A stretch of 64,000 nucleotides of DNA, from assembly GCA_027490575.1 (NCBI GenBank), contig JAIXXV010000032.1, positions 13,211 through 77,210 on the forward strand. The letters are read 5' to 3'. Below, in pieces: positions 24,083 through 63,764 of the stretch; position 1 is the stretch's first letter; every line of letters begins with the position of its first letter. The notes under the pieces were generated by a model. It was not told where the DNA came from, made no database searches, and saw only the letters and a program-made list of their open reading frames with translations. This stretch comes from a bacterium. Lineage in GTDB: Bacteria > Patescibacteriota > Minisyncoccia > Phycocordibacterales > CAIZLB01. The translations under genes were made by a program, and so were the position numbers.

Positions 24083-26560
24083 ATGACCAATAATACAAAT
24101 AGTGGTGGTCCTGGTTTTGAACATAACCAAGAGCCTGCCACTCAAAACAATCCTAAAAACAATATCCGAGACACAGACAAGCCTATTTACAAAGAGCCTA
24201 ATATCCCTGCGCCACTACTCTCACCTTACAACCCTGCATTATCAGAACCTGTTGCCATATCTATCAACGAGAAAAGTGGACTTGCTAATCCTGATAAATG
24301 CATAGAGCTTGGACTGACATCAACAGACGCACCGCACTACTCCATAGTACTTCCCCCACCAAATGTTACAGGCACACTTCACTTAGGACATGGTCTGATG
24401 GCGACTCTACAAGATATCAGTATTCGTTTTGAGCGTATGCGTGGCAAGCAGGCACTTTGGATACCAGGTACCGACCACGCTGCCATTGCTACTCAATCAA
24501 AAGTAGAAAAAGATATTTCAAAGAAAGAAGGTAAAAGCCGTTATGACCTTGGTCGCGATGAGATGCTTAAGCGCATAGACGCATTTGCAACTGAAAGTCA
24601 TGACACTATAGTCACTCAGATAAAGAGAATGGGTGCATCTTTGGATTGGTCACGAGAAGCATTTACACTCGATGAAGCTCGTAACAAAGCAGTGAGAACA
24701 GTTTTCAAAAAAATGTACGACGATGGTTTGATATATCAAGGATCGCGCATAGTAAACTGGGACCCAAAAGGACAGACTACGATTTCTGATGATGAGATTG
24801 TGCATGAAGAGAGGAAAGCAAAGCTATACACATTTAAATACAGCAAAGATTTCCCTATCTCTATCTCAACGACTAGACCTGAGACAAAGGTTGGAGATAC
24901 AGCAGTAGCAGTACACCCAGAAGATGAAAGATATGCAGAGTATGTTGGTAAAACATATGACCTAGATTTTTGTGGGTCAAAGATTTCTGTAAAGATTATT
25001 GCTGATCATGCAGTTGAAAAAGACTTCGGTACAGGTGCTCTCGGAGTAACACCTGCCCACAGTATGGTTGACTGGGAAATGTCTCGTAGACATGACTTGC
25101 CAGTTGTACAGGTCATAGATGAAAAGGCTCGAATGATTGTTTCTCAAGACTCCCCTCTCTATGACAAAGAAAAAAATATCGGTATGAAGACTACTGATGC
25201 ACGCGAAAAGGTCGTCGAGTGGTTACGTGAGCAAGGTCTTCTAGAAAAAGAAGAAGATATTATACAAAGAATCGGTACAGCAGAGAGAACAGGTGGTATC
25301 ATCGAGCCTCTTCCGAAGAAACAATGGTGGGTAGCTGTTACAAAACCATTTACAATCAAACACTCAAATATCAGTGGTGTACAAAGCGGTCAACAAACAA
25401 CTCTAAAAGAGATAATGCAAAAAGCTGTTTCAGAAGGACAGATTGCTATTATGCCCGAGCATTACAATAAGACTTATTTCCACTGGATAGATAACCTCAA
25501 CGACTGGTGTATTTCTAGACAGATTTGGTATGGGCATAGGATACCTGTTTGGTACAAGATGGGTTCAAGCGACCAAAGTTCAGGTGCGATTTCTAGCTCA
25601 GCAAAAAGCGAAGTGTACTGCGATGTTCTATCACCTACCGAAGCTGGTCTACCTGATGCTGACATGTATGTACAAGATGAAGACACCCTAGACACTTGGT
25701 TCTCATCTGGTCTTTGGACTTTCTCGACGCTTGGATGGCCAGACAACATTGACGCTAAAACTGGAGAAACAATGGCTGGCTCTGACCTTTCTCGTTTTCA
25801 CCCTACAAACCTGCTTATCACTGGACCTGACATACTTTTCTTCTGGGTTGCACGAATGATCTTGATGACAGGATACGCACTTGGTGAAATACCATTTTCA
25901 AAAGTATACCTAAACGGTATCGTTCGAGATATCAAGGGTCAAAAGATGAGTAAGTCACTTGGAAACGGTGGAGACCCGGTAGAGATATCTGAAAAGTACG
26001 GCGCGGATGCACTTCGTATGTTCTACGCTATGAGTACAGCGCCAGGAACTGATTCTAGGCTAGATGAAAACAAGATAAAGGGCTTTAAGCATTTTGCAAA
26101 TAAGATTTGGAATATCGTAAGGTTCGTGCTGACTGCAACAGAAAACCATACATATGATAAAAGCTTCAGTGGATGGACAGAAAAAGACTCAGTACTGCGC
26201 GCAGAGAGAGATGATATTTTCAAAGCTGTAACCAGAGAGATAGAAGAGAGCAAATACCACCTAGCATCTGAAAAAGTTTATCAATATACATGGAGTACCC
26301 TTGCTGATGTAATACTTGAGGATAGCAAGTTCGTATTCGCAGGTAATGACGAGGAGGCAAAATTATCTCGAGCAAAGTTTCTACTTGAGACAATCAGACT
26401 TATCACGATAGTCGCGCACCCTTTCATGCCACATGTCACTGAAGAAGTTTGGTCATTGTTAACCACAGGTAAAAGTCTAATAGAGCGAGTACAAAACGAT
26501 ACTTCACATGCTACAATAAATCCAAGCGATCTATTGATGGCACAAAAATGGCCTTTTTAA
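24083..26560 (+). CDS. valS: Valyl-tRNA synthetase (short form lacking the long C-terminal coiled coil)
   Basis: PPPNVTGTLHLGHGLM (HIGH region), WIPGTDHAAIATQ and KMSKSLGN. Confidence 0.9.
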   Translation: MTNNTNSGGPGFEHNQEPATQNNPKNNIRDTDKPIYKEPNIPAPLLSPYNPALSEPVAISINEKSGLANPDKCIELGLTSTDAPHYSIVLPPPNVTGTLHLGHGLMATLQDISIRFERMRGKQALWIPGTDHAAIATQSKVEKDISKKEGKSRYDLGRDEMLKRIDAFATESHDTIVTQIKRMGASLDWSREAFTLDEARNKAVRTVFKKMYDDGLIYQGSRIVNWDPKGQTTISDDEIVHEERKAKLYTFKYSKDFPISISTTRPETKVGDTAVAVHPEDERYAEYVGKTYDLDFCGSKISVKIIADHAVEKDFGTGALGVTPAHSMVDWEMSRRHDLPVVQVIDEKARMIVSQDSPLYDKEKNIGMKTTDAREKVVEWLREQGLLEKEEDIIQRIGTAERTGGIIEPLPKKQWWVAVTKPFTIKHSNISGVQSGQQTTLKEIMQKAVSEGQIAIMPEHYNKTYFHWIDNLNDWCISRQIWYGHRIPVWYKMGSSDQSSGAISSSAKSEVYCDVLSPTEAGLPDADMYVQDEDTLDTWFSSGLWTFSTLGWPDNIDAKTGETMAGSDLSRFHPTNLLITGPDILFFWVARMILMTGYALGEIPFSKVYLNGIVRDIKGQKMSKSLGNGGDPVEISEKYGADALRMFYAMSTAPGTDSRLDENKIKGFKHFANKIWNIVRFVLTATENHTYDKSFSGWTEKDSVLRAERDDIFKAVTREIEESKYHLASEKVYQYTWSTLADVILEDSKFVFAGNDEEAKLSRAKFLLETIRLITIVAHPFMPHVTEEVWSLLTTGKSLIERVQNDTSHATINPSDLLMAQKWPF

Positions 26561-27333
26561 GCACACTAAATAATCTAGCATCGACACCGGTTGAGAGTCT
26601 GATAAGTACTCCTAGTATTTTTAGCCTGGAAGTTTTCGGTATTGCACTTATAGGAGGACTCCTACCCGCACTGGTATGGCTTTGGTTCTGGATGCATGAA
26701 AGTCATGACCACCATGAGCCAAAAAGCGTGCTTTGGAGTGTATTCATACTTGGCATGGCCAGTGTTTTTTTAGTACTACCAATACAAGCACTTTTGTCTA
26801 GGTATATGGACTTACCAATGGTGCCCGATAACTCATTCAGCATTATACTTTGGGCTGGTATTGAAGAAATTATAAAATACTCAGTTGCATTTGCTGCAGC
26901 ACTTAGATTTAAACCTGATGTATTTGATGAGCCTATAGACGCATTTGTCTATTTGATGACGGCGGCACTTGGCTTTGCTGCTATGGAAAATATACTTTTC
27001 TTGATTGGGCCACTACTACAAGGCGAGACAATCCTGACTATCATGACAGGTAATATGCGCTTTATGGGTGCCAACTTATTGCATGTTGCTTCATCAGGTG
27101 CACTGTCTATATTTATAGCCTATGGATATTACAAATCAAAAACTGCTCAACTTGGATACTTGATATCAGGACTTGCTGCGGCTACTCTATTGCATGCATT
27201 GTTTAATTTTCTTATAATACTATTAACAGAAATACAAAAGGAAATGATCTTTGTTGCATTCTCATACGTTTGGGTCACTCTGATCATTCTGATTCTGGCA
27301 CTTGAAAAGGTGAAAAAGATAAAACAATTTTAG
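26548..27333 (+). CDS. PrsW-like intramembrane protease family protein
   Basis: Multi-TM protein carrying GIEEIIKYS, GFAAMENILF and a LHVASSG...GYY region, resembling the PrsW EExxK / FxxxE / H motifs. Overlaps the valS stop by 13 nt. Confidence 0.5.
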   Translation: MAFLSTLNNLASTPVESLISTPSIFSLEVFGIALIGGLLPALVWLWFWMHESHDHHEPKSVLWSVFILGMASVFLVLPIQALLSRYMDLPMVPDNSFSIILWAGIEEIIKYSVAFAAALRFKPDVFDEPIDAFVYLMTAALGFAAMENILFLIGPLLQGETILTIMTGNMRFMGANLLHVASSGALSIFIAYGYYKSKTAQLGYLISGLAAATLLHALFNFLIILLTEIQKEMIFVAFSYVWVTLIILILALEKVKKIKQF

Positions 27334-44817: not shown

Positions 44818-46161
44818 TTAACCGATAATCCCCTTTTTCAACATGTTTTGTCTTTTGAATTCAGCAATTCTATTGTCGATACTTGGTTTGTTGTATTTGT
44901 AGAATGCATAACCAGCGATCGAACTCCACAGTATCATTGCCAATGTTATAACTATCATCTTTGGACCAAAGTCTATACCTGTTGCAGGTACTTGGTTTAG
45001 GAATACTCCAGATACAGGTACACCAGTTACAGGTGTTTGATCTCTGATAACTGTTACGTTAGAAGCTACAGTGTTTGCAAAGATGGTTGTAGCACAAGTA
45101 GCGCTTACACTTTGACCATTTACAAATGCAGTAACACTCGCTGTCTTGTATCCAGGTATGTTGTAAGATCTAGTTAACTGAGCAGAATTTCCGAAAAGTC
45201 CATCAGTTCCTGACCAGTTGTATGAAGTTGCACCCCAGATATTTCCATTTACATACATAGTCCATGTAACGTTTTGGTTTATGAATGCAGTTGCAGGTGT
45301 AGCTACACAGTAAGCTCCGATAGGATTTACAGGTGGTACATAAGTGTCTTGTATAAGAACATTACATGATCTAGTGATTGATTGATTACCAGATGTGATA
45401 GTTACATAAGCTGTCTTGTATCCAAGTGATGCAAATCTTCCCGTAAATGATTGACCTGATGCACTTATACCATCACTTCCTGACCATACGTATGTGTAGT
45501 TTCCAGAACCTCCAGAAGCAGTTGCCATGAAAGTTAGGTTTTGATTAACAAATGCAGTTGAAGGACTAATGATACAGTTACCATTTAGAGTAGGTTCGGA
45601 AGGAGTGTTTGTATTTGAACCACCGCCACCTAGTACAACTAGACTGATGTTGTTGTTGTTTACAGGGTTAAATGTGTTTGAGTTGTTGTTTGTTGCACTA
45701 GCTGTACTGTTGTTTGTGTTAGTGTTTGTATTTCTGTTGGTATTTGTGTTTGTATTAGTATTTGAAGTATATACATACGAAAGCTGAGGGGCAGGTGTAA
45801 ATCCAAAACCTCCTCCACCACCTACATTGTTGTAGACATATCTTTGAGCTGGGGCCGCAACGAATCCTCCACCTACACGGTTTTGAACAGGTTGTACGTA
45901 TCTTTGCGTAGGGGCTGAAAATACAGGGTTTGAATATGTTGTATTCAATCTATATCCTGAAGAAGGACTTGAGTATACAGGGTTAGAGTAAGTTGTATTC
46001 AATCTATACCCAGAACCCGTTGTTCCAACACCTGACAAGCCAGAGCTTGTTTTAGATGCAAAAGTAACTCCTGGAAACAGCGTCACAGAAGAGACCAAAA
46101 TGGCTAGAAATATGAATTTCCCCGCTTTTTGTAGACTTTTTATATTTGTAATTGTTTTCAT
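44818..46161 (-). CDS. Secreted surface protein with an NT-repeat low-complexity linker, two Ig-like repeats and the C-terminal module PVSGVFLNQVPATG + TM + charged tail (candidate sortase substrate)
   Basis: Signal peptide (FIFLAILVSSVTLFPGVTFA), a TNTNTNTNRNTNTNTN linker, and two ~90-aa repeats (YTYVWSGSDGISASGQ... and SYNWSGTDGLFGNSAQ...). The C-terminal motif is shared with ORF 62616-63764. Confidence 0.6.
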   Translation of the reverse strand: MKTITNIKSLQKAGKFIFLAILVSSVTLFPGVTFASKTSSGLSGVGTTGSGYRLNTTYSNPVYSSPSSGYRLNTTYSNPVFSAPTQRYVQPVQNRVGGGFVAAPAQRYVYNNVGGGGGFGFTPAPQLSYVYTSNTNTNTNTNRNTNTNTNNSTASATNNNSNTFNPVNNNNISLVVLGGGGSNTNTPSEPTLNGNCIISPSTAFVNQNLTFMATASGGSGNYTYVWSGSDGISASGQSFTGRFASLGYKTAYVTITSGNQSITRSCNVLIQDTYVPPVNPIGAYCVATPATAFINQNVTWTMYVNGNIWGATSYNWSGTDGLFGNSAQLTRSYNIPGYKTASVTAFVNGQSVSATCATTIFANTVASNVTVIRDQTPVTGVPVSGVFLNQVPATGIDFGPKMIVITLAMILWSSIAGYAFYKYNKPSIDNRIAEFKRQNMLKKGIIG

Positions 46162-46202
46162 AATGTCAAAACTATATATTATATTTAAATAAAGTCAAGT
46201 AA

Positions 46203-46228
46203 AAAGGCCGACGTCCTGGGACGCCGAC
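46203..46228 (-). terminator. Intrinsic terminator (minus strand)
   Basis: GGCCGACGTCCtggGACGCCGACC hairpin (two mismatches), with a T-run on the minus strand. Confidence 0.45.
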
Positions 46229-46250
46229 CTTGTTGCTCTTTTTGTTTTTT

Positions 46251-46817
46251 TCACCTTCGTGCATCGGGAGGTGGTTGGTAGAGCGAACCAACCGTCCTGC
46301 CTGCCTGTGGAATCATCTGCGGAGGTCCATTTTGACCCTGAAGGTCACCGGGTGCGTAGATCATGCCAGTGGCATGATCCATGAACCATGGTTTGGAATC
46401 GTCCAGTGTCACCTTACTTTCGCGAGGAGCTCCGTGGGTCCTTTGGAACTCACGGAGTTGCTCGTCGTTGAAGTGATGGACGGTGCCGTCGTCCATAGTG
46501 ACGGTGTGTGTACGCGTAGCATAGCCGAGCAGACGTCTACCGTCTGGCATAGCCTGGCCGACATGATTGTCGGCTGAGCCTTGGACCACTTGTCCATGGC
46601 CCCACTGGTGATTTGGAGGTTGACCTCCGTTTTCTACAGTTTGACCATTGAATGCCATGGGCGCTTGACCCATAACCACCCCAGGTTGTTGGACAACTTG
46701 GCGCCGCTGTGGAACAGCAATGCAAGAGACGAAGCTGATCATGGTGACCAGTGCCAATACTAACAATTTCACTTTTTTCATGATAATGAACGATTTTAGG
46801 GTTTGCTGAATGTACAC
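46251..46817 (-). CDS. Hypothetical secreted/lipoprotein (signal peptide plus Cys), Pro/Gly/Gln-rich, high-GC gene
   Basis: Begins MKKVKLLVLALVTMISFVSCIA. GC is ~55% against a ~38% background. Confidence 0.5.
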   Translation of the reverse strand: MYIQQTLKSFIIMKKVKLLVLALVTMISFVSCIAVPQRRQVVQQPGVVMGQAPMAFNGQTVENGGQPPNHQWGHGQVVQGSADNHVGQAMPDGRRLLGYATRTHTVTMDDGTVHHFNDEQLREFQRTHGAPRESKVTLDDSKPWFMDHATGMIYAPGDLQGQNGPPQMIPQAGRTVGSLYQPPPDARR

Positions 46818-46975: not shown

Positions 46976-47728
46976 ATGTCAGAAAACATGAAAAGCGCGT
47001 TCCTTACATACATCATGCTAGGTTTTACCAGCTTGATGGCCCAATACAACATCATAGTAGACGCAAGTCTGCAGATGGCCACCCTCTTCCAGGATGGCAA
47101 AATAGTTCAAGGTTTTGCCGAAATACCCATTGCCACCGGCATGCTAGGGCACGAGACCCCGGAGGGTACATGGAGTGTGCTGTCAGCTAAAGCCAGCGAC
47201 CGATCCAACAAATTTGGAGTGAATATGCCTTACTGCTTCAGAACCAACGCGATTGGTGGTGGTATCTGCATGCATGAAGGGCCGGTTTATCCAGGAGCAG
47301 CATCACACGGGTGCATTCGTATTCGTCACGACTTCGCCAAAAATCTTTTTGATAAAGTTGGCGATAACTGGAAATCTATGAAGATTGTAGTGGTTGGGTC
47401 AATTAAGGATTACATCAAGACAAGACTTGGTGGACTGGTGAGCTTTGACAAAGACGGTAGACCTGTAAAGTTTATCAGGGATTCGTCAGGTAGGCTTCCA
47501 GATGAGTTCCTAAAAGCTCTACATGACGGAAGAGTTACGCTCTTCTGCGAGAATAAAAGTGGTACGATTTCATTTGACCAAAATCAATGGTTCATATCGC
47601 TTGAATTTTGGCAAGACAAGAGGTTAAAAGGAGTGACTCTATCAGAGCTACAATCAAGATTTGGCCAAAGGGTTAACCTCACTGAGAACCAAATCAAAGA
47701 ACTTCACAGGAGAGTTGAAAGGTATTAG
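46976..47728 (+). CDS. L,D-transpeptidase (YkuD domain)
   Basis: GHETPEGTWSV...HGCIRIRHD matches the catalytic His/Cys of the YkuD fold. Confidence 0.75.
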   Translation: MSENMKSAFLTYIMLGFTSLMAQYNIIVDASLQMATLFQDGKIVQGFAEIPIATGMLGHETPEGTWSVLSAKASDRSNKFGVNMPYCFRTNAIGGGICMHEGPVYPGAASHGCIRIRHDFAKNLFDKVGDNWKSMKIVVVGSIKDYIKTRLGGLVSFDKDGRPVKFIRDSSGRLPDEFLKALHDGRVTLFCENKSGTISFDQNQWFISLEFWQDKRLKGVTLSELQSRFGQRVNLTENQIKELHRRVERY

Positions 47729-47775: not shown

Positions 47776-47903
47776 TTAATGCACTGATTTTTATCTCGTA
47801 CGATTTATATAAAAAACCTATTGATAAATATAAAAAACCGCCCACTCCACGAATGGAGCAGACGGGCTTTGAGGGTATCTAAAGTCCTCACACCTAGAGA
47901 CAA

Positions 47904-48356
47904 CTACCAGAACCCTGGCTGGCACCCGCCACCAATACCACTACGGTCTGGATTCTGGTTGTAGATGTACTGCAGCTGGCCATAAGGATTCTGTGACCCG
48001 ATATGCGGTATAGGTCCACCACCGTGTAGATAGATAGGGTGACCAGATCTGGAGAATCCTCCGAATACCTGACCGCCTCCCCATCCACCAAAGCCTTGGT
48101 TGAAACCTTGGTTGATCCAAGGGTCAGCACAAGCACCGACAGGTGCAAGGCCTACACCGTCAAAGACAGGAAACCCGTCATCACAGATGACTGCACCTCC
48201 TCCGAAGCCATCGTCTAGAACGAGACAACTCGGCAAAGCCAAGCTACACACCAAAGCCATCAAGACAAGCTTGATTGCCTTTAGGAAGCGCACTGACCGC
48301 GAGACCAAGGGTAGCCGAGCTCCAGTGACAACACAACTGACTGATTTGTTTTTCAT
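47904..48356 (-). CDS. Hypothetical secreted glycine-rich, Cys-containing protein, high-GC (probable start MKNKSVS at 48356; the track ORF extends to 48443)
   Basis: Signal peptide (AIKLVLMALVCSLALPSC), then G-rich repeats (GFGGGAV, GFGGWGGGQVFGG). A minus-strand hairpin terminator lies at 47838-47870. Confidence 0.45.
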   Translation of the reverse strand: MKNKSVSCVVTGARLPLVSRSVRFLKAIKLVLMALVCSLALPSCLVLDDGFGGGAVICDDGFPVFDGVGLAPVGACADPWINQGFNQGFGGWGGGQVFGGFSRSGHPIYLHGGGPIPHIGSQNPYGQLQYIYNQNPDRSGIGGGCQPGFW

Positions 48357-48581
48357 ACTGACAACCCGCCTTTCAACCGGGTTCGAGCAAGGTTTTTTAG
48401 ACCCACTCTTTTGGTTTGGTTTTTGATTTCGATTTGATACCAATGTCTGACATTTTCACGCCAAATAAAGTTGGTATATTTCAAGCGAACACTGCCCCTA
48501 AAGAAGAATGCTCGTAACTAACCTGTAAAAATATTGCATTAGTTGAGACTAACTGTCAACCCCAACTTAGCCTGACACCGA

Positions 48582-48863
48582 TTATTTAAAACCGCCCATC
48601 ACAGCACCCTCCTCTTTCAATATCTCAATCTTCTTTTCCTTTCCCCTATTGTACCCGCCCGCCTTACCATCCGACCTGACAACTCTATGACACGGTACAG
48701 CAGTATTGTAGTTTTTGTTTAATATATTTCCCACAGCACGAAAAGCATTTGGACTTCCAGCACGAAGAGCCACCTCTTTATAAGTCAAAGTCTTGCCTTT
48801 TGGTATGGACCTGACAGCATCGTATACGCTTTCAGAAAAAGTTTTTATTGTTTGAGACTTCAT
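48582..48863 (-). CDS. ogt: Methylated-DNA-protein-cysteine methyltransferase (MGMT/Ogt, DNA-binding C-terminal domain only)
   Basis: TYKEVALRAGSPNAFRAVGNILNKN...PCHRVV carries the PCHRV active-site motif. Confidence 0.75.
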   Translation of the reverse strand: MKSQTIKTFSESVYDAVRSIPKGKTLTYKEVALRAGSPNAFRAVGNILNKNYNTAVPCHRVVRSDGKAGGYNRGKEKKIEILKEEGAVMGGFK

Positions 48864-48979: not shown

Positions 48980-49804
48980 TTACCCCCTAGTCCCAACATA
49001 ATCCGCCTCCACCACATATCTATCATTCTTTGTTCCAAAACTATCACATGTCGATATGGTTAGCATATTTCTTGTTGTATCAAACTTTATCAAAGCTTCG
49101 TTTTTGTCTACCTTATTAACACTTTTTACTTTGTATACAAAAGTAGTACTACCTGATTGCAAAAGTATCTCGTCGCCAGCTCTCACTTTGTGGAGCTCAT
49201 TGAAAACCCTATATGCTTGGTTTTGCACAACTCTAAAACCAGTACTATGCCCGAAGATAAACATATTACCTTTTCCTATAGACCCTGATCCAGGATATCG
49301 CACAGCTCCCTTTTTAAGCTCATTATCAAGTACGGTAATACTAGTTGAGCTAGGATTTTTTACTATAGTGTTTATATCAAGTGAAGGTACTATCAATCTA
49401 TCTGGCACAATGATTTTTCCGTCACCAATACCTGGGCCACTTGTTCCACCAGAACTATTGGCGTCTGAAGATTGAGCAGATGGATTTGTTGAGTTTAGTA
49501 TTCCCAAGGCTGAATGACCCGGTCTATCACCCGCCAAAGGCTCCTGTCCTGAAGTAGGATTATTGAAAAGAGTGTCTACGATGCCGCCATCGGAGCTTTG
49601 TCTAAGTTCACTCGGCAATAAGCCTGTGACAGCCAATAACAAAGCCGATCCTAAAAATACCATGGCAAAAAAACCGATAAATCGGACCTCATTAGTTGAA
49701 AATATATTTTTGAACCATTTTTCCATATTATTTATATGTATTTTATATGAGCTATGTTTATACAAGTATTTTAAACAAGCGTTTATAAGAGTATTATAGC
49801 CCAA
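48980..49804 (-). CDS. Sortase family transpeptidase
   Basis: N-terminal TM anchor, a His motif (FIFGHSTGF), a TLxTC-like catalytic Cys (LTISTCDS) and a downstream Arg. Confidence 0.75.
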   Translation of the reverse strand: MGYNTLINACLKYLYKHSSYKIHINNMEKWFKNIFSTNEVRFIGFFAMVFLGSALLLAVTGLLPSELRQSSDGGIVDTLFNNPTSGQEPLAGDRPGHSALGILNSTNPSAQSSDANSSGGTSGPGIGDGKIIVPDRLIVPSLDINTIVKNPSSTSITVLDNELKKGAVRYPGSGSIGKGNMFIFGHSTGFRVVQNQAYRVFNELHKVRAGDEILLQSGSTTFVYKVKSVNKVDKNEALIKFDTTRNMLTISTCDSFGTKNDRYVVEADYVGTRG

Positions 49805-49873: not shown

Positions 49874-51127
49874 ATGAAAAACTTTATTAAAATCATTATC
49901 ATAGTAGCAATACTGGTTATACTGGTATTTCTAAGTGTTGGTATAGTGCGTATTGTACCTAGAGTAGTGTCTTCCCTAGCCTCAGCTACGGTGTCACTTG
50001 GCTCATTTTTTACTGGTGGTTCAGACAGCAATGCCACTTCAACTTCAAGTAGTGGTAACAGTACTAACAATAATGGTACTCAAACATCTACATCTACAAG
50101 TGGAAATGGTTTTGTAGTGATTAATGGAACATCAACAAATTCTAGCAATGAAGATGATAGATCATTGGTCAATATACTTAGACCAAACAATACTTCAGGG
50201 CAACCTACTCAAGGTTCAAACAATTCAAACACTTCGAATGTAAAGAACTCTGTAAACAATTCTGCAAACGCAGGTACAGGCAACGTCTCTTATGTTGCAA
50301 ATACATGTACTAACGGTCGTGTATCTGATCTTGCCGTGAGAGTGCTTTCTCGTGGTGTTATGAACAAGGCTACAGGTCAATACATAGAGACCAACTCATT
50401 TACATCAGCTGACACTGTCATCGTAAAGTTTATAGCTGAAAACAGAGGAAGCTGTCCTACGGGCACATGGAGTCTAAGAGTAGACATGCCATCACAAAAC
50501 ACAGCTGATAGAGTTAGAAATATAGTAAACGTAGCTAGTCTTCCTGCTGGTTCTACAGTAACAGGTGAAGTTAACTTCACTACACCTGTAGTTGGAAATT
50601 CAAATGTAACTCTAACAGTAACTGATAACTCAGGTAGAGATTCAAATCTTTCAAACAATACAGTACCGACTTCGATTACGACTATTGCTACTAACACAGG
50701 TACAAATCCTGGAACACCTATCACAGGTGATGGAAGACCTGACCTGGCAGTGCGAATACTTAGAATGGGTACACTTGGATTCAATAACCAATTCGTCCCT
50801 ATCGCAAATACTTCATCTAACTTCGGCGGTAACTTCAGAGTTGGTGAAAGAGTTGCAGTACAATTTGAAGTCATTAACCAAGGACAAACACCTACTGGTG
50901 CATGGACATGGAGAGCTGACTCTGTAGCATTTCAAAATGGAAGCTATACAAACAATCAGTATGAAAATTCAATCCCTGCAGGAGGCAGACTTGTATACAC
51001 TATTGGATTTGATAGTCAGACTATAGGTACAAACAATATCTCTGTCACAGCAGATCATTTGAACCAAGTAAATGAGTTCAATGAATCAAACAATATCGCT
51101 GGTGTTAGTTTCAATGTTGGATACTAA
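49874..51127 (+). CDS. Membrane-anchored extracellular protein with an S/T/N-rich linker and two CARDB-like domains
   Basis: N-terminal TM segment, a low-complexity N/S/T region and a two-fold repeat containing (R)PDLAVR(V/I)L...GxW(S/T)(L/W)R. Confidence 0.55.
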   Translation: MKNFIKIIIIVAILVILVFLSVGIVRIVPRVVSSLASATVSLGSFFTGGSDSNATSTSSSGNSTNNNGTQTSTSTSGNGFVVINGTSTNSSNEDDRSLVNILRPNNTSGQPTQGSNNSNTSNVKNSVNNSANAGTGNVSYVANTCTNGRVSDLAVRVLSRGVMNKATGQYIETNSFTSADTVIVKFIAENRGSCPTGTWSLRVDMPSQNTADRVRNIVNVASLPAGSTVTGEVNFTTPVVGNSNVTLTVTDNSGRDSNLSNNTVPTSITTIATNTGTNPGTPITGDGRPDLAVRILRMGTLGFNNQFVPIANTSSNFGGNFRVGERVAVQFEVINQGQTPTGAWTWRADSVAFQNGSYTNNQYENSIPAGGRLVYTIGFDSQTIGTNNISVTADHLNQVNEFNESNNIAGVSFNVGY

Positions 51128-61140: not shown

Positions 61141-62610
61141 TTAGGTGCTTATCAAAAAATCAACAACTCTCTGGTCTACTTGTATATCTCTTCTCGTTAT
61201 AGGTTTGGTGAGCTGAATCCCCTCGAGACTTCTAACGCGACTTAGCGCCACATAAGCTTGTCCATGTGCAAAAGTCCCCTTTCCAAAATCTATGATTGCA
61301 TTATCGAACGTTTTACCTTGACTCTTGTGTATAGTAACTGCCCAAGCAAGTTTTACCGGTATTTGTATGTACTTTCCAACAACCTCAGAAGAAACTCTGT
61401 TTTGCTTTGAGTCAAATTCATATCTAACTGATTCCCAACTTTCACTTTCAACTTCCTCGGTCTTGCCATTACGAAGTTGTACATTGATGGAAGTTGAGTT
61501 TAGCTTTTTTACAATACCAAGATCTCCATTGACCCATCTGCCCATAGGATCATTTCTAAGCATCATGACTTGTGCGCCAACTTTCAGCACCAGAGCTTCA
61601 GGCGCTGGTGTAGTTTTTCTATCAAAAGCTCCTTGTACATGACCTTTGTATGTTTTAGCGGCACCATATATTTCAGTTAGCTTTTTGTTATTGATTACCT
61701 CAGCTGATGCATTGGTAGAAACTAGATATATGGCATCACTTGGCATTTTTTTCTTTTTATTTAAACTGCTTTTGCCTGCATTTTTTGAATGAGCGCCAGA
61801 CTTAGTTTTTCCACCAATCCCCTCACTACTATCATTGTCCATATCAATCACTAGCTCATAATCACCTCCGAATTGATAGTCAGACTCTGATTGAAATCCA
61901 CCTGAATCTGACACGGAGTCTTGATTGAAATTTTGTGAAAAATCTAGACAGCACACTGAATTGATTTTATAAAGATCATTTTCATCCATACGACCTGTAC
62001 GAATCCTATCAAGGATAGAGACGAACTCAGTATCACTTTGTCTATAAACTTCTGTAAGCTCAGCTATCTGGAAATTGCCCTTGGGATATGACTTTGAATC
62101 AAAAAAGTATGGGCTCTGATAATGATCTATGAAGACGTACTGTTCATGTGGAGCAACTACCGGAGGCAACTGAAACATGTCTCCAATAGCCACCATTTGT
62201 ACACCACCAAAAAACTCACCAGGCTTTGGACCGTTGAGTCTAAGGAATCTCTCAACACAATCAAAAAGATCTGCACGGACCATAGATATTTCATCTATTA
62301 CAAGTGTGTCTAGCTTTTTGTAAAGCTTAGATAAGGTCTCATCTGAGATAATGCTTATATCTCTATCTATCACACCTATCTTAAACTTAAAGAAGCTGTG
62401 TATGGTCTGACCTTTGATATTTAGTGCTGCTATGCCTGTGGGTGCAACTACGGCTATGTTTTTCTTGGTGGTATCTCGAAAATGTTGCAGCAAAGTAGAT
62501 TTACCAGTACCAGCTCTACCAGTAATGAATATGTTTTGGCTAGAATTTTCAAGCAAATCTAATATATCTTTTGACTCGTCAGATAATTTCATATCTGAAT
62601 AATACTCCAA
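61141..62610 (-). CDS. Pif1/RecD-like SF1 DNA helicase with an internal low-complexity insertion
   Basis: Walker A GRAGTGKST, then VVAPTGIAALNIKGQTIHSFF...DEISMV, then the C-terminal VTIHKSQGKTFD and AYVALSRVRSLEGI motifs typical of the Pif1 family. A S/D/G-rich insert lies at ~residues 225-290. Confidence 0.75.
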   Translation of the reverse strand: MEYYSDMKLSDESKDILDLLENSSQNIFITGRAGTGKSTLLQHFRDTTKKNIAVVAPTGIAALNIKGQTIHSFFKFKIGVIDRDISIISDETLSKLYKKLDTLVIDEISMVRADLFDCVERFLRLNGPKPGEFFGGVQMVAIGDMFQLPPVVAPHEQYVFIDHYQSPYFFDSKSYPKGNFQIAELTEVYRQSDTEFVSILDRIRTGRMDENDLYKINSVCCLDFSQNFNQDSVSDSGGFQSESDYQFGGDYELVIDMDNDSSEGIGGKTKSGAHSKNAGKSSLNKKKKMPSDAIYLVSTNASAEVINNKKLTEIYGAAKTYKGHVQGAFDRKTTPAPEALVLKVGAQVMMLRNDPMGRWVNGDLGIVKKLNSTSINVQLRNGKTEEVESESWESVRYEFDSKQNRVSSEVVGKYIQIPVKLAWAVTIHKSQGKTFDNAIIDFGKGTFAHGQAYVALSRVRSLEGIQLTKPITRRDIQVDQRVVDFLIST

Positions 62611-62615
62611 TCAAT

Positions 62616-63764
62616 CTAACCCTGCATCTTCTTTTTTGTCTTTTGTTGTTGCATTAGTTTAAATGCAGTAGCTATGTCTGAAACAGAGGCTTGTGCATTG
62701 GCACTAGATGATACAGTTGACGCATCAGACGCATTTGAGAAAGACACGAGTCTCTGATTTCCAAATGAGTAATATTTATGGAATACAAGTGCACCCAGTA
62801 AACTACTTAGCATTAAGCCCGTAAGCAAGATTGCGCTTTTTACGCCAGGAGTTACTCCTGTTGCAGGAACTTGGTTTAGGAATACACCCGAGACCGGCTG
62901 TCCAGAAACACCAGAAGTGTACTGGTACGTAGGTTGAACATAAGTATAAGTAGTCGGTTGTGTATATACAGGTTGTGTATATGTTTGTTGGTAGTTGTAG
63001 TCGTAAGGATAATAGTATTGATTTGGATTTTGATATTGCCAATTCCAAGTTTGATTTTGCCAAGTATTGTTCCAACTACTATTATTCCAGCCATTATTCC
63101 ATGTATTGTTCCAATTATTATTCCAGTTGTTATTTGTTCCATAACCAACTTGTACAAATAAACTTGCACAAGAAGTATTATTAAATGATGAGCAAATTGT
63201 GTAAGACATTGTACCTAATTGATTACCTGTAACTGTTATCTGGCTACCACTTATATAAGCACTAGCAATACTTGAGTTATTGTTATTTGAAATAAAATAT
63301 CCTCCGCCAGTACCTGAGATATTTACAGATTGAGTTTGCCCCACATTCAGAGTAAGACTTGTCTGACTTAAGCTTATGGTTTGATTATTCCATGTTCCAC
63401 CTGTCACATTGACCTGAAGCGTTGCACAAGGAGCCATAGACGCTTGCGAACATATAGTTAGACTTGATGTTCCTTGAGATAGACCTTGAACTTGCACTAG
63501 TCCACTTGATGATCCTGCACTTACCACGGTACTGTTTGAGTTTGCTGATACGTAGTAGTTACCTGATCCACCTGACACATTTACAGTAACTGTTTGACCT
63601 GAGTTTATATTTATAAATGACTGACTAAGATATATTGGTCCGTAGTAAGGGGTTGACTGTGCACTAGCAAAACCACCTGGCACCAAAAAAGATAGTGCAG
63701 ATAGGCATACTGAAACTGCGAAAATGGTGCTTTTTATAGCTATTTTTTTAGATATATTTGTCAT
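62616..63764 (-). CDS. Secreted surface protein with two Ig-like repeats, an N/W-rich low-complexity region and the C-terminal module PVSGVFLNQVPATG + TM + long tail
   Basis: Signal peptide, repeats (NYYVSANSNSTVVSAGSSS...; GYFISNNNNSSIASAYISGSQ...), an NNWNN repeat tract, and a C-terminal motif identical to that of ORF 44818-46161. Confidence 0.55.
   Translation of the reverse strand: MTNISKKIAIKSTIFAVSVCLSALSFLVPGGFASAQSTPYYGPIYLSQSFININSGQTVTVNVSGGSGNYYVSANSNSTVVSAGSSSGLVQVQGLSQGTSSLTICSQASMAPCATLQVNVTGGTWNNQTISLSQTSLTLNVGQTQSVNISGTGGGYFISNNNNSSIASAYISGSQITVTGNQLGTMSYTICSSFNNTSCASLFVQVGYGTNNNWNNNWNNTWNNGWNNSSWNNTWQNQTWNWQYQNPNQYYYPYDYNYQQTYTQPVYTQPTTYTYVQPTYQYTSGVSGQPVSGVFLNQVPATGVTPGVKSAILLTGLMLSSLLGALVFHKYYSFGNQRLVSFSNASDASTVSSSANAQASVSDIATAFKLMQQQKTKKKMQG

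Follow-up and report, generated by a model that had tools for sequence, protein, structure and literature searches.

The C-terminal ends of two surface proteins encoded in a 64,000-nucleotide stretch of bacterial DNA (contig JAIXXV010000032.1 of assembly GCA_027490575.1, positions 13,211 to 77,210; hereafter, the window) probably constitute an extended, Paceibacterota-specific sortase sorting signal, whose [VI]PxTG pentapeptide would be cut by the sortase encoded in the same neighborhood. The signal is built from five parts: a flexible linker that bears the signature SGV[FY]L[SN]Q[VI]P-x-T-G; a spacer of 5–6 residues; a transmembrane (TM) helix in which F, G, L, W-S, F, A and Y are conserved; a cluster of basic residues; and a variable linker followed by a C-terminal helix, [AE]FKxxN[ML]xKKG. 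The window has a G+C content of 39.8%, and the close homologs of its proteins are labeled Candidatus Paceibacterota, Parcubacteria, Taylorbacteria or "Patescibacteria group", so the DNA belongs to an uncultured, ultra-small bacterium of the Patescibacteria.

The C-terminal module and its neighboring sortase

An initial annotation of the window, made from its letters alone, had noticed that two distant and otherwise different open reading frames (ORFs), here called ORF A and ORF B, share an identical stretch of 14 amino acids (aa), PVSGVFLNQVPATG, followed by a hydrophobic helix and a charged tail. Both ORFs and the stretch were found as described; the sites given for it were right, with positions off by about 10 nt, and the tail after the TM helix measured 26 aa in ORF A, as announced, and 54 aa rather than about 60 in ORF B (Table 1). 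Both proteins start with a signal peptide, called from the sequence and a hydropathy scan, in which a basic n-region precedes a hydrophobic core and an A-x-A-like site (TFA/SK in ORF A and ASA/QS in ORF B). In ORF A the signal peptide is followed by an N/T-rich region, disordered in the AlphaFold2 (AF2) model, and by two PKD-type domains detected as two Pfam PKD_4 stretches, both modeled with a predicted local distance difference test score (pLDDT) above 90. ORF B carries two Ig-like repeats (two weak PF13629 stretches) and an N/W- and Q/Y-rich spacer. At the other end of the proteins, the AF2 pLDDT stays below 50 across the signature of ORF A, which is thus predicted to be an unstructured, exposed linker leading from the last PKD domain to the TM helix. 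Short spacers, IDFGPK in ORF A and VTPGVK in ORF B, separate the pentapeptide from the TM helix, after which basic residues are found. Apart from ORF A and ORF B, no window ORF with 60 codons or more contains [LVI]PxTG, and these were also the only two proteins combining N-terminal and C-terminal hydrophobic segments in a hydropathy scan of the ORFs of at least 100 aa.

The initial annotation had also pointed to nearly identical DNA over about 40 nt at the two sites. Under the shared 14-mer, 36 of 42 nt are indeed identical, including a 29-nt run with one mismatch, as could be left by a recent duplication or gene conversion without functional meaning. However, 8 of the 14 codons are identical versus 5.15 expected from the codon usage of the window (P = 0.09), four consecutive codons differ at their third position, and hundreds of proteins, encoded in many metagenome-assembled genomes (MAGs), keep the module, which already refutes this explanation and leaves it a negligible probability. 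Because codon sharing does not exceed what codon bias predicts, recent gene conversion was rejected as the source of the identity, and the similarity of the DNA is best taken as a by-product of protein conservation.

The shared piece reaches well beyond 14 residues, forming a module of about 75 residues. A [VIL]PxTG sequence was present near the C-terminus in 57 out of 80 homologs of ORF A, and in 53 of those 57 it was located 45–100 residues from the end, all with an arrangement like that of ORF A and ORF B. The alignment of 40 C-termini showed invariant L, P, T, G, K, S, F and K residues, the last F and K belonging to a motif that had been overlooked by the initial annotation, [AE]FKxxN[ML]xKKG[IL][IL], which terminates the tail after a variable A/S/G/T-rich linker. 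When a profile of these 40 C-termini was run against 1.84 billion (1.84e9) representative proteins, 460 cluster representatives matched at E <= 1e-3 and 161 at E <= 1e-10, and all 133 newly listed matches had L-x-x-[VILM]-P-x-T-G followed by a spacer and a TM helix. The consensus of 190 sequences was G-T-P-V-S-G-V-[FY]-L-[SN]-Q-[VI]-P-x-T-G-I-x-x-x-L-K-x-x-L-F-x-x-G-L-x-x-W-S-x-F-x-A-Y-x-x-x-[RK][KR][RK], in which the L, P, T and G of the sortase-like motif reach 100%, figures that rest on the best 150 of the 460 profile matches. Among the 190 members the first position of the pentapeptide is V (75%), I (19%) or L (6%), whereas the X residue is free, being Y (41%), A (39%), D (10%), S (5%) or E (3%), and also N, Q or F. 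Conservation continues through a Lys that ends the spacer (K 90%) and into the TM helix (F 88%, G 76%, W 93%, S 96%, A 78%, Y 67%), after which the family consensus is [RK][KR][RK]. The module is carried by unrelated ectodomains, including PKD, SpaA prealbumin-like, dockerin, FN3 and Ig-like domains.

In view of these data, the initial proposal of a variant LPXTG-type signal that defines the recognition motif of a lineage is supported, but not with a fixed VPATG, since SGV[FY]L[SN]Q[VI]PxTG with X = Y/A/D/S/E describes the motif better. The proposal had been made to depend on the existence of further carriers and on a position next to the C-terminal TM helix in the homologs; hundreds more proteins carry the motif, and it always stands immediately before the TM helix.

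The tails of the 190 members fall into several classes: 142 have the FK tail, 23 a short basic tail, 21 more than 100 residues after the TG, and 4 another type. FK-type tails range from 26 to about 80 aa. No Pfam model matched the C-terminal module, whether it was scanned as part of the full proteins or in isolation, and none matched the long cytoplasmic tails in the long-tail members scanned.

The sortase gene reported in the initial annotation, with a TM anchor, a His and a TxxTC motif, is located 2.8 kb from ORF A. Its product scored 76.4 bits with the Pfam Sortase model (PF04203; cut-off 26.6, E = 2e-21) and 41.6 bits with TIGR01076 (cut-off 39.35), and His160 (FGH160S), Cys227 (T-I-S-T-C227) and Arg236 are invariant in 57 homologs. 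The closest solved relatives by sequence are the SrtA proteins of B. anthracis and Listeria, with which the His, Cys and Arg residues align. The AF2 model predicts an N-terminal TM helix, a disordered tether of about 55 residues and a confident catalytic sortase beta-barrel, in which most 10-residue blocks have a mean pLDDT of 84–98. None of the NCBIfam cut-offs for classes A–F or GN was reached, the best score being that for class D (41.8 vs 165 bits), followed by classes E (35.7 vs 160), C (32.2 vs 160), GN (TIGR03784; 22.5 vs 158) and F (19.1 vs 166). Foldseek matched the model to class A, C, D and E sortases with a probability of 1.00 and target-normalized TM-scores of 0.6–0.8, with a class C sortase on top, tied with class A. 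Neither the NCBIfam models nor Foldseek assigns the enzyme to a class, as A, C, D and E are equidistant from it. The membrane anchor itself is conserved to a degree unusual for such a segment: F9, F16, F20, F24 and G35 are present in at least 93% of the homologs, E40 in 98%, and L31 and P38 are invariant. The anchor has a conserved Phe stripe and a GLLPSE juxtamembrane motif.

The gene for this enzyme travels with the module. Homologs of the sortase and of ORF A had 13 contigs in common, recognized by their identical lengths, three of them just 2.5–3.8 kb long, and gene maps of three relatives placed the sortase upstream of the module gene, directly adjacent to it in one of them. Another of these relatives matches the window in synteny, with the order (GyrB ... 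CARDB <> sortase ... YkuD ... PKD-module protein < UDG < ThrRS < DnaE). In species-representative genomes we found 33 module loci, all in Patescibacteria-type MAGs, and searched their six-frame ORFs with the sortase and module profiles. A sortase gene on the same strand and upstream of the module gene was detected in 19 of the 33 loci, corresponding to 19 of the 26 informative ones, defined as those with at least 3.7 kb of DNA upstream of the module gene. The order of this cassette is CARDB protein <> sortase > module protein, and in 8 species-representative loci the gap between sortase and substrate genes is 140 nt or less. We estimate the chance of such a placement at about 1% per gene for a genome of about 0.7 Mb with one sortase. 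In locus L038 a module protein of 1071 aa, with 311 residues after the TG, is encoded 140 nt downstream of the sortase, so the sortase-coupled members include long-tail ones.

Where the anchor is of another type, the sortase is missing. Three positional orthologs of ORF A are PKD proteins encoded beside ThrRS, two of them also near DnaE and/or GyrB; they carry a different C-terminal anchor, LFSLxNVPWGW-TM-IFNxxKI, and neither a sortase nor a CARDB gene was found within 8 kb of them. At the level of loci the sortase thus behaves as the cognate enzyme of the module. A third module protein, P0057, of the PKD/SprB type and with 81 aa from the VPATG motif to the C-terminus, comes from the same sample as the window sortase (SRR30952586), where it is encoded on a separate contig with no sortase nearby. 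The source genome therefore probably has at least three substrates, and the pattern is one of a cassette substrate plus dispersed substrates. Regarding the dispersed ORF B, its close homologs keep the module, whereas distant homologs with the same Ig-like N-terminus have PG_binding_1 domains or another C-terminal domain instead. This swap with PG_binding_1 domains points to wall attachment as the job of the module.

Proposed mechanism and alternative explanations

According to the mechanism we propose, ORF A and ORF B would be exported by Sec and held in the membrane by the TM helix and the basic residues. The membrane-tethered sortase (48980–49726) would then cut between T and G through a thioester on Cys227, and the ectodomain would be handed on to an amine acceptor, for which a peptidoglycan precursor is the most likely candidate, while the fragment comprising the G, the spacer, the TM helix and the tail would remain in the membrane. 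In this scheme ORF A would be the cassette substrate, with ORF B and P0057 as dispersed substrates of the same sortase. Peptidoglycan enzymes are encoded both in the window (YkuD) and on another contig from the same sample (Ddl). We infer the cleavage site, the acceptor and the roles of the conserved TM residues and of the FK tail from comparative data, and our guess is that these residues and the tail act as extra recognition or retention determinants for this sortase.

The choice of substrate might depend in part on the docking of its TM helix and tail onto the Phe stripe and GLLPSE anchor of the sortase. In helical-moment tests the conservation of the substrate TM helix did not fall on a single face (0.10 vs 0.10, P = 0.47), and the sortase anchor gave a modest signal (0.19 vs 0.09, P = 0.02), so we put forward TM–TM docking as speculation. 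It is conceivable, if rather unlikely, that cleavage leaves in the membrane a fragment with a function of its own, made of the G-spacer-K segment, the TM helix and the FK helix or, in about 11% of the members, a cytoplasmic domain of about 70–390 aa. Such a fragment might inform the cytoplasm of the flux of surface proteins or show where sorting takes place, and each of these genes would then encode two products separated by the sortase.

Several facts weigh against a sortase signal. The case for cleavage and anchoring is purely comparative, and the invariance of L, P, T and G applies to the best profile matches. In NCBIfam, the full ORF A and ORF B proteins had no match at E <= 1, and the isolated modules had no relevant match at E <= 10, the LPXTG anchor model TIGR01167 included. 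The basic cluster after the TM helix is weak in both window proteins (KYNK in ORF A and HKYY in ORF B), and 7 of the 26 informative loci have no sortase in their flanks. Such loci are what would be expected of dispersed paralogs. Several of the module loci that lack a sortase are ORF B-type paralogs (L012 and L026, encoding the ORF B homologs P0338 and P0337) or additional copies, the cassette being associated with the other copy of the same genome. Instead of the short, non-conserved charged tail of LPXTG proteins, the tails are long and have a conserved terminal motif, and 21 of the 190 members (about 11%) have 120–390 aa after the TG/TM, most of them sharing a conserved cytoplasmic domain of about 70 aa (LE.RARE...LIS.DGLE.I ... 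W..LN..KI). A disposable sorting peptide is not expected to need nine conserved TM and juxtamembrane positions, a terminal helix and a cytoplasmic domain. The reservation that the initial annotation made about the length of the tails was thus justified, as a plain disposable sorting signal does not explain a conserved tail motif and whole cytoplasmic domains.

The conserved TM residues, the FK motif, the cytoplasmic extensions and the failure of the curated LPXTG models to match the module would all suit an uncleaved membrane-anchoring or signaling module, which would tether the ectodomain and perhaps couple it to a cytoplasmic partner; the resemblance to [VI]PxTG would then be coincidental, or the sortase would have a different role. 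We consider this improbable, given that invariant P, T and G residues around a free X are the signature of sortase substrates and that the motif is part of a disordered linker and is set apart from the TM helix by a spacer. The genomic data argue in the same direction: the upstream sortase is conserved and often operon-like, even beside the long-tail protein of L038, it is missing where the anchor type differs, and the module is interchanged with peptidoglycan-binding domains in ORF B homologs. This last exchange also argues for the wall as the destination and against a second alternative, in which the sortase would cut between T and G but ligate the product to a Lys on a different surface protein, candidates being the CARDB protein and a second module protein, and so build a pilus- or fibril-like assembly in the manner of class C sortases. 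The arrangement of a dedicated sortase gene between those of two surface proteins is reminiscent of pilus islands, the CARDB gene being present in 19 of 19 cassettes; some members have SpaA-type domains, typical of pilins and adhesins; the top Foldseek match is a class C sortase, though tied with class A; and S. pneumoniae has VPDTG and IPQTG as sorting signals of its pilins (PMC5640630). Nevertheless, ORF A, ORF B and the CARDB protein lack the pilin motif YPK or [YFW]PK, the aligned CARDB proteins share no Lys conserved at 90% or more that could mark an acceptor, there is one sortase per locus, and the enzyme remains at 32 bits versus a cut-off of 160 in the NCBIfam class C model, so that we give pilus-like ligation a low probability. 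Overall, an extended sorting signal cut by the neighboring sortase is the probable explanation and the one that we favor.

Neighboring genes and a second anchor

The features discussed are listed in Table 1. The divergent CARDB gene precedes the sortase in all 19 sortase-containing species-representative loci, so its product is the probable third member of the cassette. The TM and juxtamembrane region of this protein is conserved. A YkuD gene recurs in the cassettes of loci L004, L010, L014 and L019 and beside the module gene in L006, which suggests a small cell-wall/surface gene cluster. Between ORF A and the sortase there are two islands with a G+C content of 50–55%, at 46200–46800 and 47800–48400, which coincide with two small ORFs encoding exported G/P/Q-rich proteins; locus L002 has small ORFs at similar positions. 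Among the window ORFs scanned against Pfam there was no exosortase or rhombosortase, and the only intramembrane protease was a PrsW-family protein with no evident link to the module. The DNA_binding_1 protein and the PIF1/RecD-like helicase are probably unrelated housekeeping neighbors.

A second type of anchor, formed by SAAALFSLQNVPWGW, a TM helix and a terminal IFN[RK]xKI, was observed on the PKD positional orthologs from other Paceibacterota. It gave no meaningful NCBIfam match and had no sortase within 8 kb, and it may represent an independent, undescribed sorting or anchoring signal.

Table 1. Features of the window and of related loci (window coordinates unless a locus is named)
Feature	Coordinates	Strand	Remarks
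PrsW-family intramembrane metalloprotease	26548-27333	+	Pfam E = 5e-24; 18 kb away
ORF A	44818..46161	-	447 aa; exported surface protein with the putative C-terminal sorting module at aa ~377-447
ORF A, signal peptide			aa 1-35
ORF A, N/T-rich disordered low-complexity region			aa 28-185
ORF A, PKD-type beta-sandwich domains			aa 193-271 and 282-361; one invariant Cys pair per domain
ORF A, signature PVSGVFLNQVPATG	44977..45018	-	aa 382-395
ORF A, pentapeptide VPATG	44977-44991		predicted sortase scissile bond between T394 and G395
ORF A, C-terminal TM helix	44899..44958	-	aa 402-421 (aa 400-423 in the AF2 model); family-conserved W412-S413 inside
ORF A, tail motif EFKRQNMLKKGIIG	44821..44862	-	cytoplasmic; predicted helical at aa 428-442
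Small ORF	46251-46817	-	188 aa; lipoprotein-like N-terminus
YkuD-type L,D-transpeptidase	46976..47728	+	between sortase and ORF A; variable insert
Small ORF	47904-48443	-	179 aa
Ogt-like DNA_binding_1 protein	48582-48863	-	93 aa; immediately downstream of the sortase
Sortase, longest ORF	48980..49804	-	274 aa
Sortase, probable coding sequence	48980-49726	-	248 aa; probable start at ATG 49726; identical to database protein P0081
Two-CARDB-domain protein	49874..51127	+	N-terminally membrane-anchored; divergent from the sortase
PIF1/RecD-like helicase	61141-62610	-	6 nt between its end and the stop codon of ORF B
ORF B	62616..63764	-	382 aa; exported surface protein with the same putative C-terminal sorting module
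ORF B, signature PVSGVFLNQVPATG	62856..62897	-	aa 290-303; VPATG at 62856-62870
ORF B, C-terminal TM helix	62781..62837	-	aa 310-328
ORF B, tail motif AFKLMQQQKTKKKMQG	62619..62666	-	
Third module protein, P0057	L043/L044 6001-7395		
Long-tail module protein beside the sortase	L038 7760-10972		
Other long-tail members			P0242, P0251, P0260, P0283, P0294, P0298-P0300, P0306, P0311, P0313, P0315, P0317-P0320, P0324, P0325, P0327, P0329
Second-anchor proteins	L039 7926-9278; L040 7995-9497		
Other second-anchor proteins			P0060-P0062, P0064-P0066, P0068-P0075

Significance and comparison with known sorting systems

The Patescibacteria, or Candidate Phyla Radiation (CPR), are a large and almost entirely uncultured radiation, many of whose members are thought to live attached to host cells, so that their surface proteins probably mediate the contact with the host. 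How these proteins are anchored has largely been inferred. Sortases have been reported in more than half of the CPR genomes (PMC6744442), and "sortase motifs" have been mentioned on CPR surface proteins (PMC5220378). Our search of the literature on CPR sortases and motif variants returned general statements of this kind and the pneumococcal VPDTG only, without a definition of the module, and no paper and no Pfam or NCBIfam model was found that defines what CPR sortases recognize. The extended module, the FK tail and the cassette of CARDB protein, sortase and substrate are thus not described in the literature searched or in Pfam and NCBIfam.

The profile of the module provides a computable tag with which the probable sortase-anchored surface proteome of Paceibacterota genomes can be listed, and the module and the sortase make up a concrete enzyme–peptide pair that can be assayed in vitro without cultivation, for instance with the peptides GVFLNQVPATGIDFG and Abz-SGVFLNQVPATGIDFG-Dnp. 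If our reading is right, this would be a natural case in which the conserved determinants of a sortase signal extend past the pentapeptide into the TM helix and the cytoplasmic tail, which would bear on how sortases choose their substrates and possibly on sortase-based protein engineering. The upside would be larger if the retained membrane fragment proves functional.

The paradigm for such signals is protein A of S. aureus, representing the LPXTG/sortase A system of Firmicutes, which NCBIfam covers with the TIGR01167 anchor and TIGR01076 sortase models. As in that system, there is a signal peptide, an invariant P, T and G with a free X, a hydrophilic spacer, a TM helix and basic residues, and the enzyme of the window is membrane-tethered and has the His/Cys/Arg triad and the sortase beta-barrel. 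In contrast to LPXTG signals, the first position of the motif is mostly V or I, about 10 upstream residues (G-T-P-V-S-G-V-[FY]-L-[SN]-Q) and specific TM residues are conserved, and the tail of 26–80 aa ends in a second motif, [AE]FKxxN[ML]xKKG; moreover, no curated anchor model matches the module, and the sortase scores below the cut-off of every class from A to F.

The sorting signals of S. pneumoniae pilins, VPDTG in RrgC and IPQTG in RrgB (PMC5640630), show that V/I-P-x-T-G is within the known variation of the motif, and in such class C systems the sortase gene is likewise found beside those of its substrates. The differences lie in the lack of a YPK motif, in the single sortase of the cassette, in the PKD or Ig-like nature of the substrates, and in the additional conservation of the TM helix and the tail. 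Dedicated sortase–target pairs, such as SrtB with IsdC and its NPQTN signal or the class GN "marine" sortases (TIGR03784) with their adjacent target, also combine one sortase with a neighboring cognate substrate that bears an idiosyncratic, family-specific signal. Unlike in those pairs, the module is also present on the dispersed and unrelated proteins ORF B and P0057, so the relation between substrates and enzyme is few-to-one rather than one-to-one.

Finally, the module shares with the PEP-CTERM/exosortase, GlyGly-CTERM/rhombosortase and MYXO-CTERM/myxosortase systems, which are lineage-specific, tripartite sorting domains discovered in silico (Haft, 10.1101/2023.06.07.544157, PMC3237569), a short signature followed by a TM helix and a basic cluster, as well as its restriction to a lineage, its presence on unrelated exported proteins and the possibility of discovering it through co-occurrence with a processing enzyme. 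None of the NCBIfam CTERM models (PEP-CTERM, GlyGly-CTERM, MYXO-CTERM) matched it, however, and in those systems the signature abuts the TM helix and the enzyme is a polytopic intramembrane protein, whereas in the module a spacer intervenes and the partner is a single-pass sortase, which places it outside the CTERM group. Haft describes such a spacer as a usual feature of LPXTG-type signals that those cut by intramembrane proteases lack. In function, what we propose for ORF A, ORF B and their sortase is an LPXTG/sortase system.

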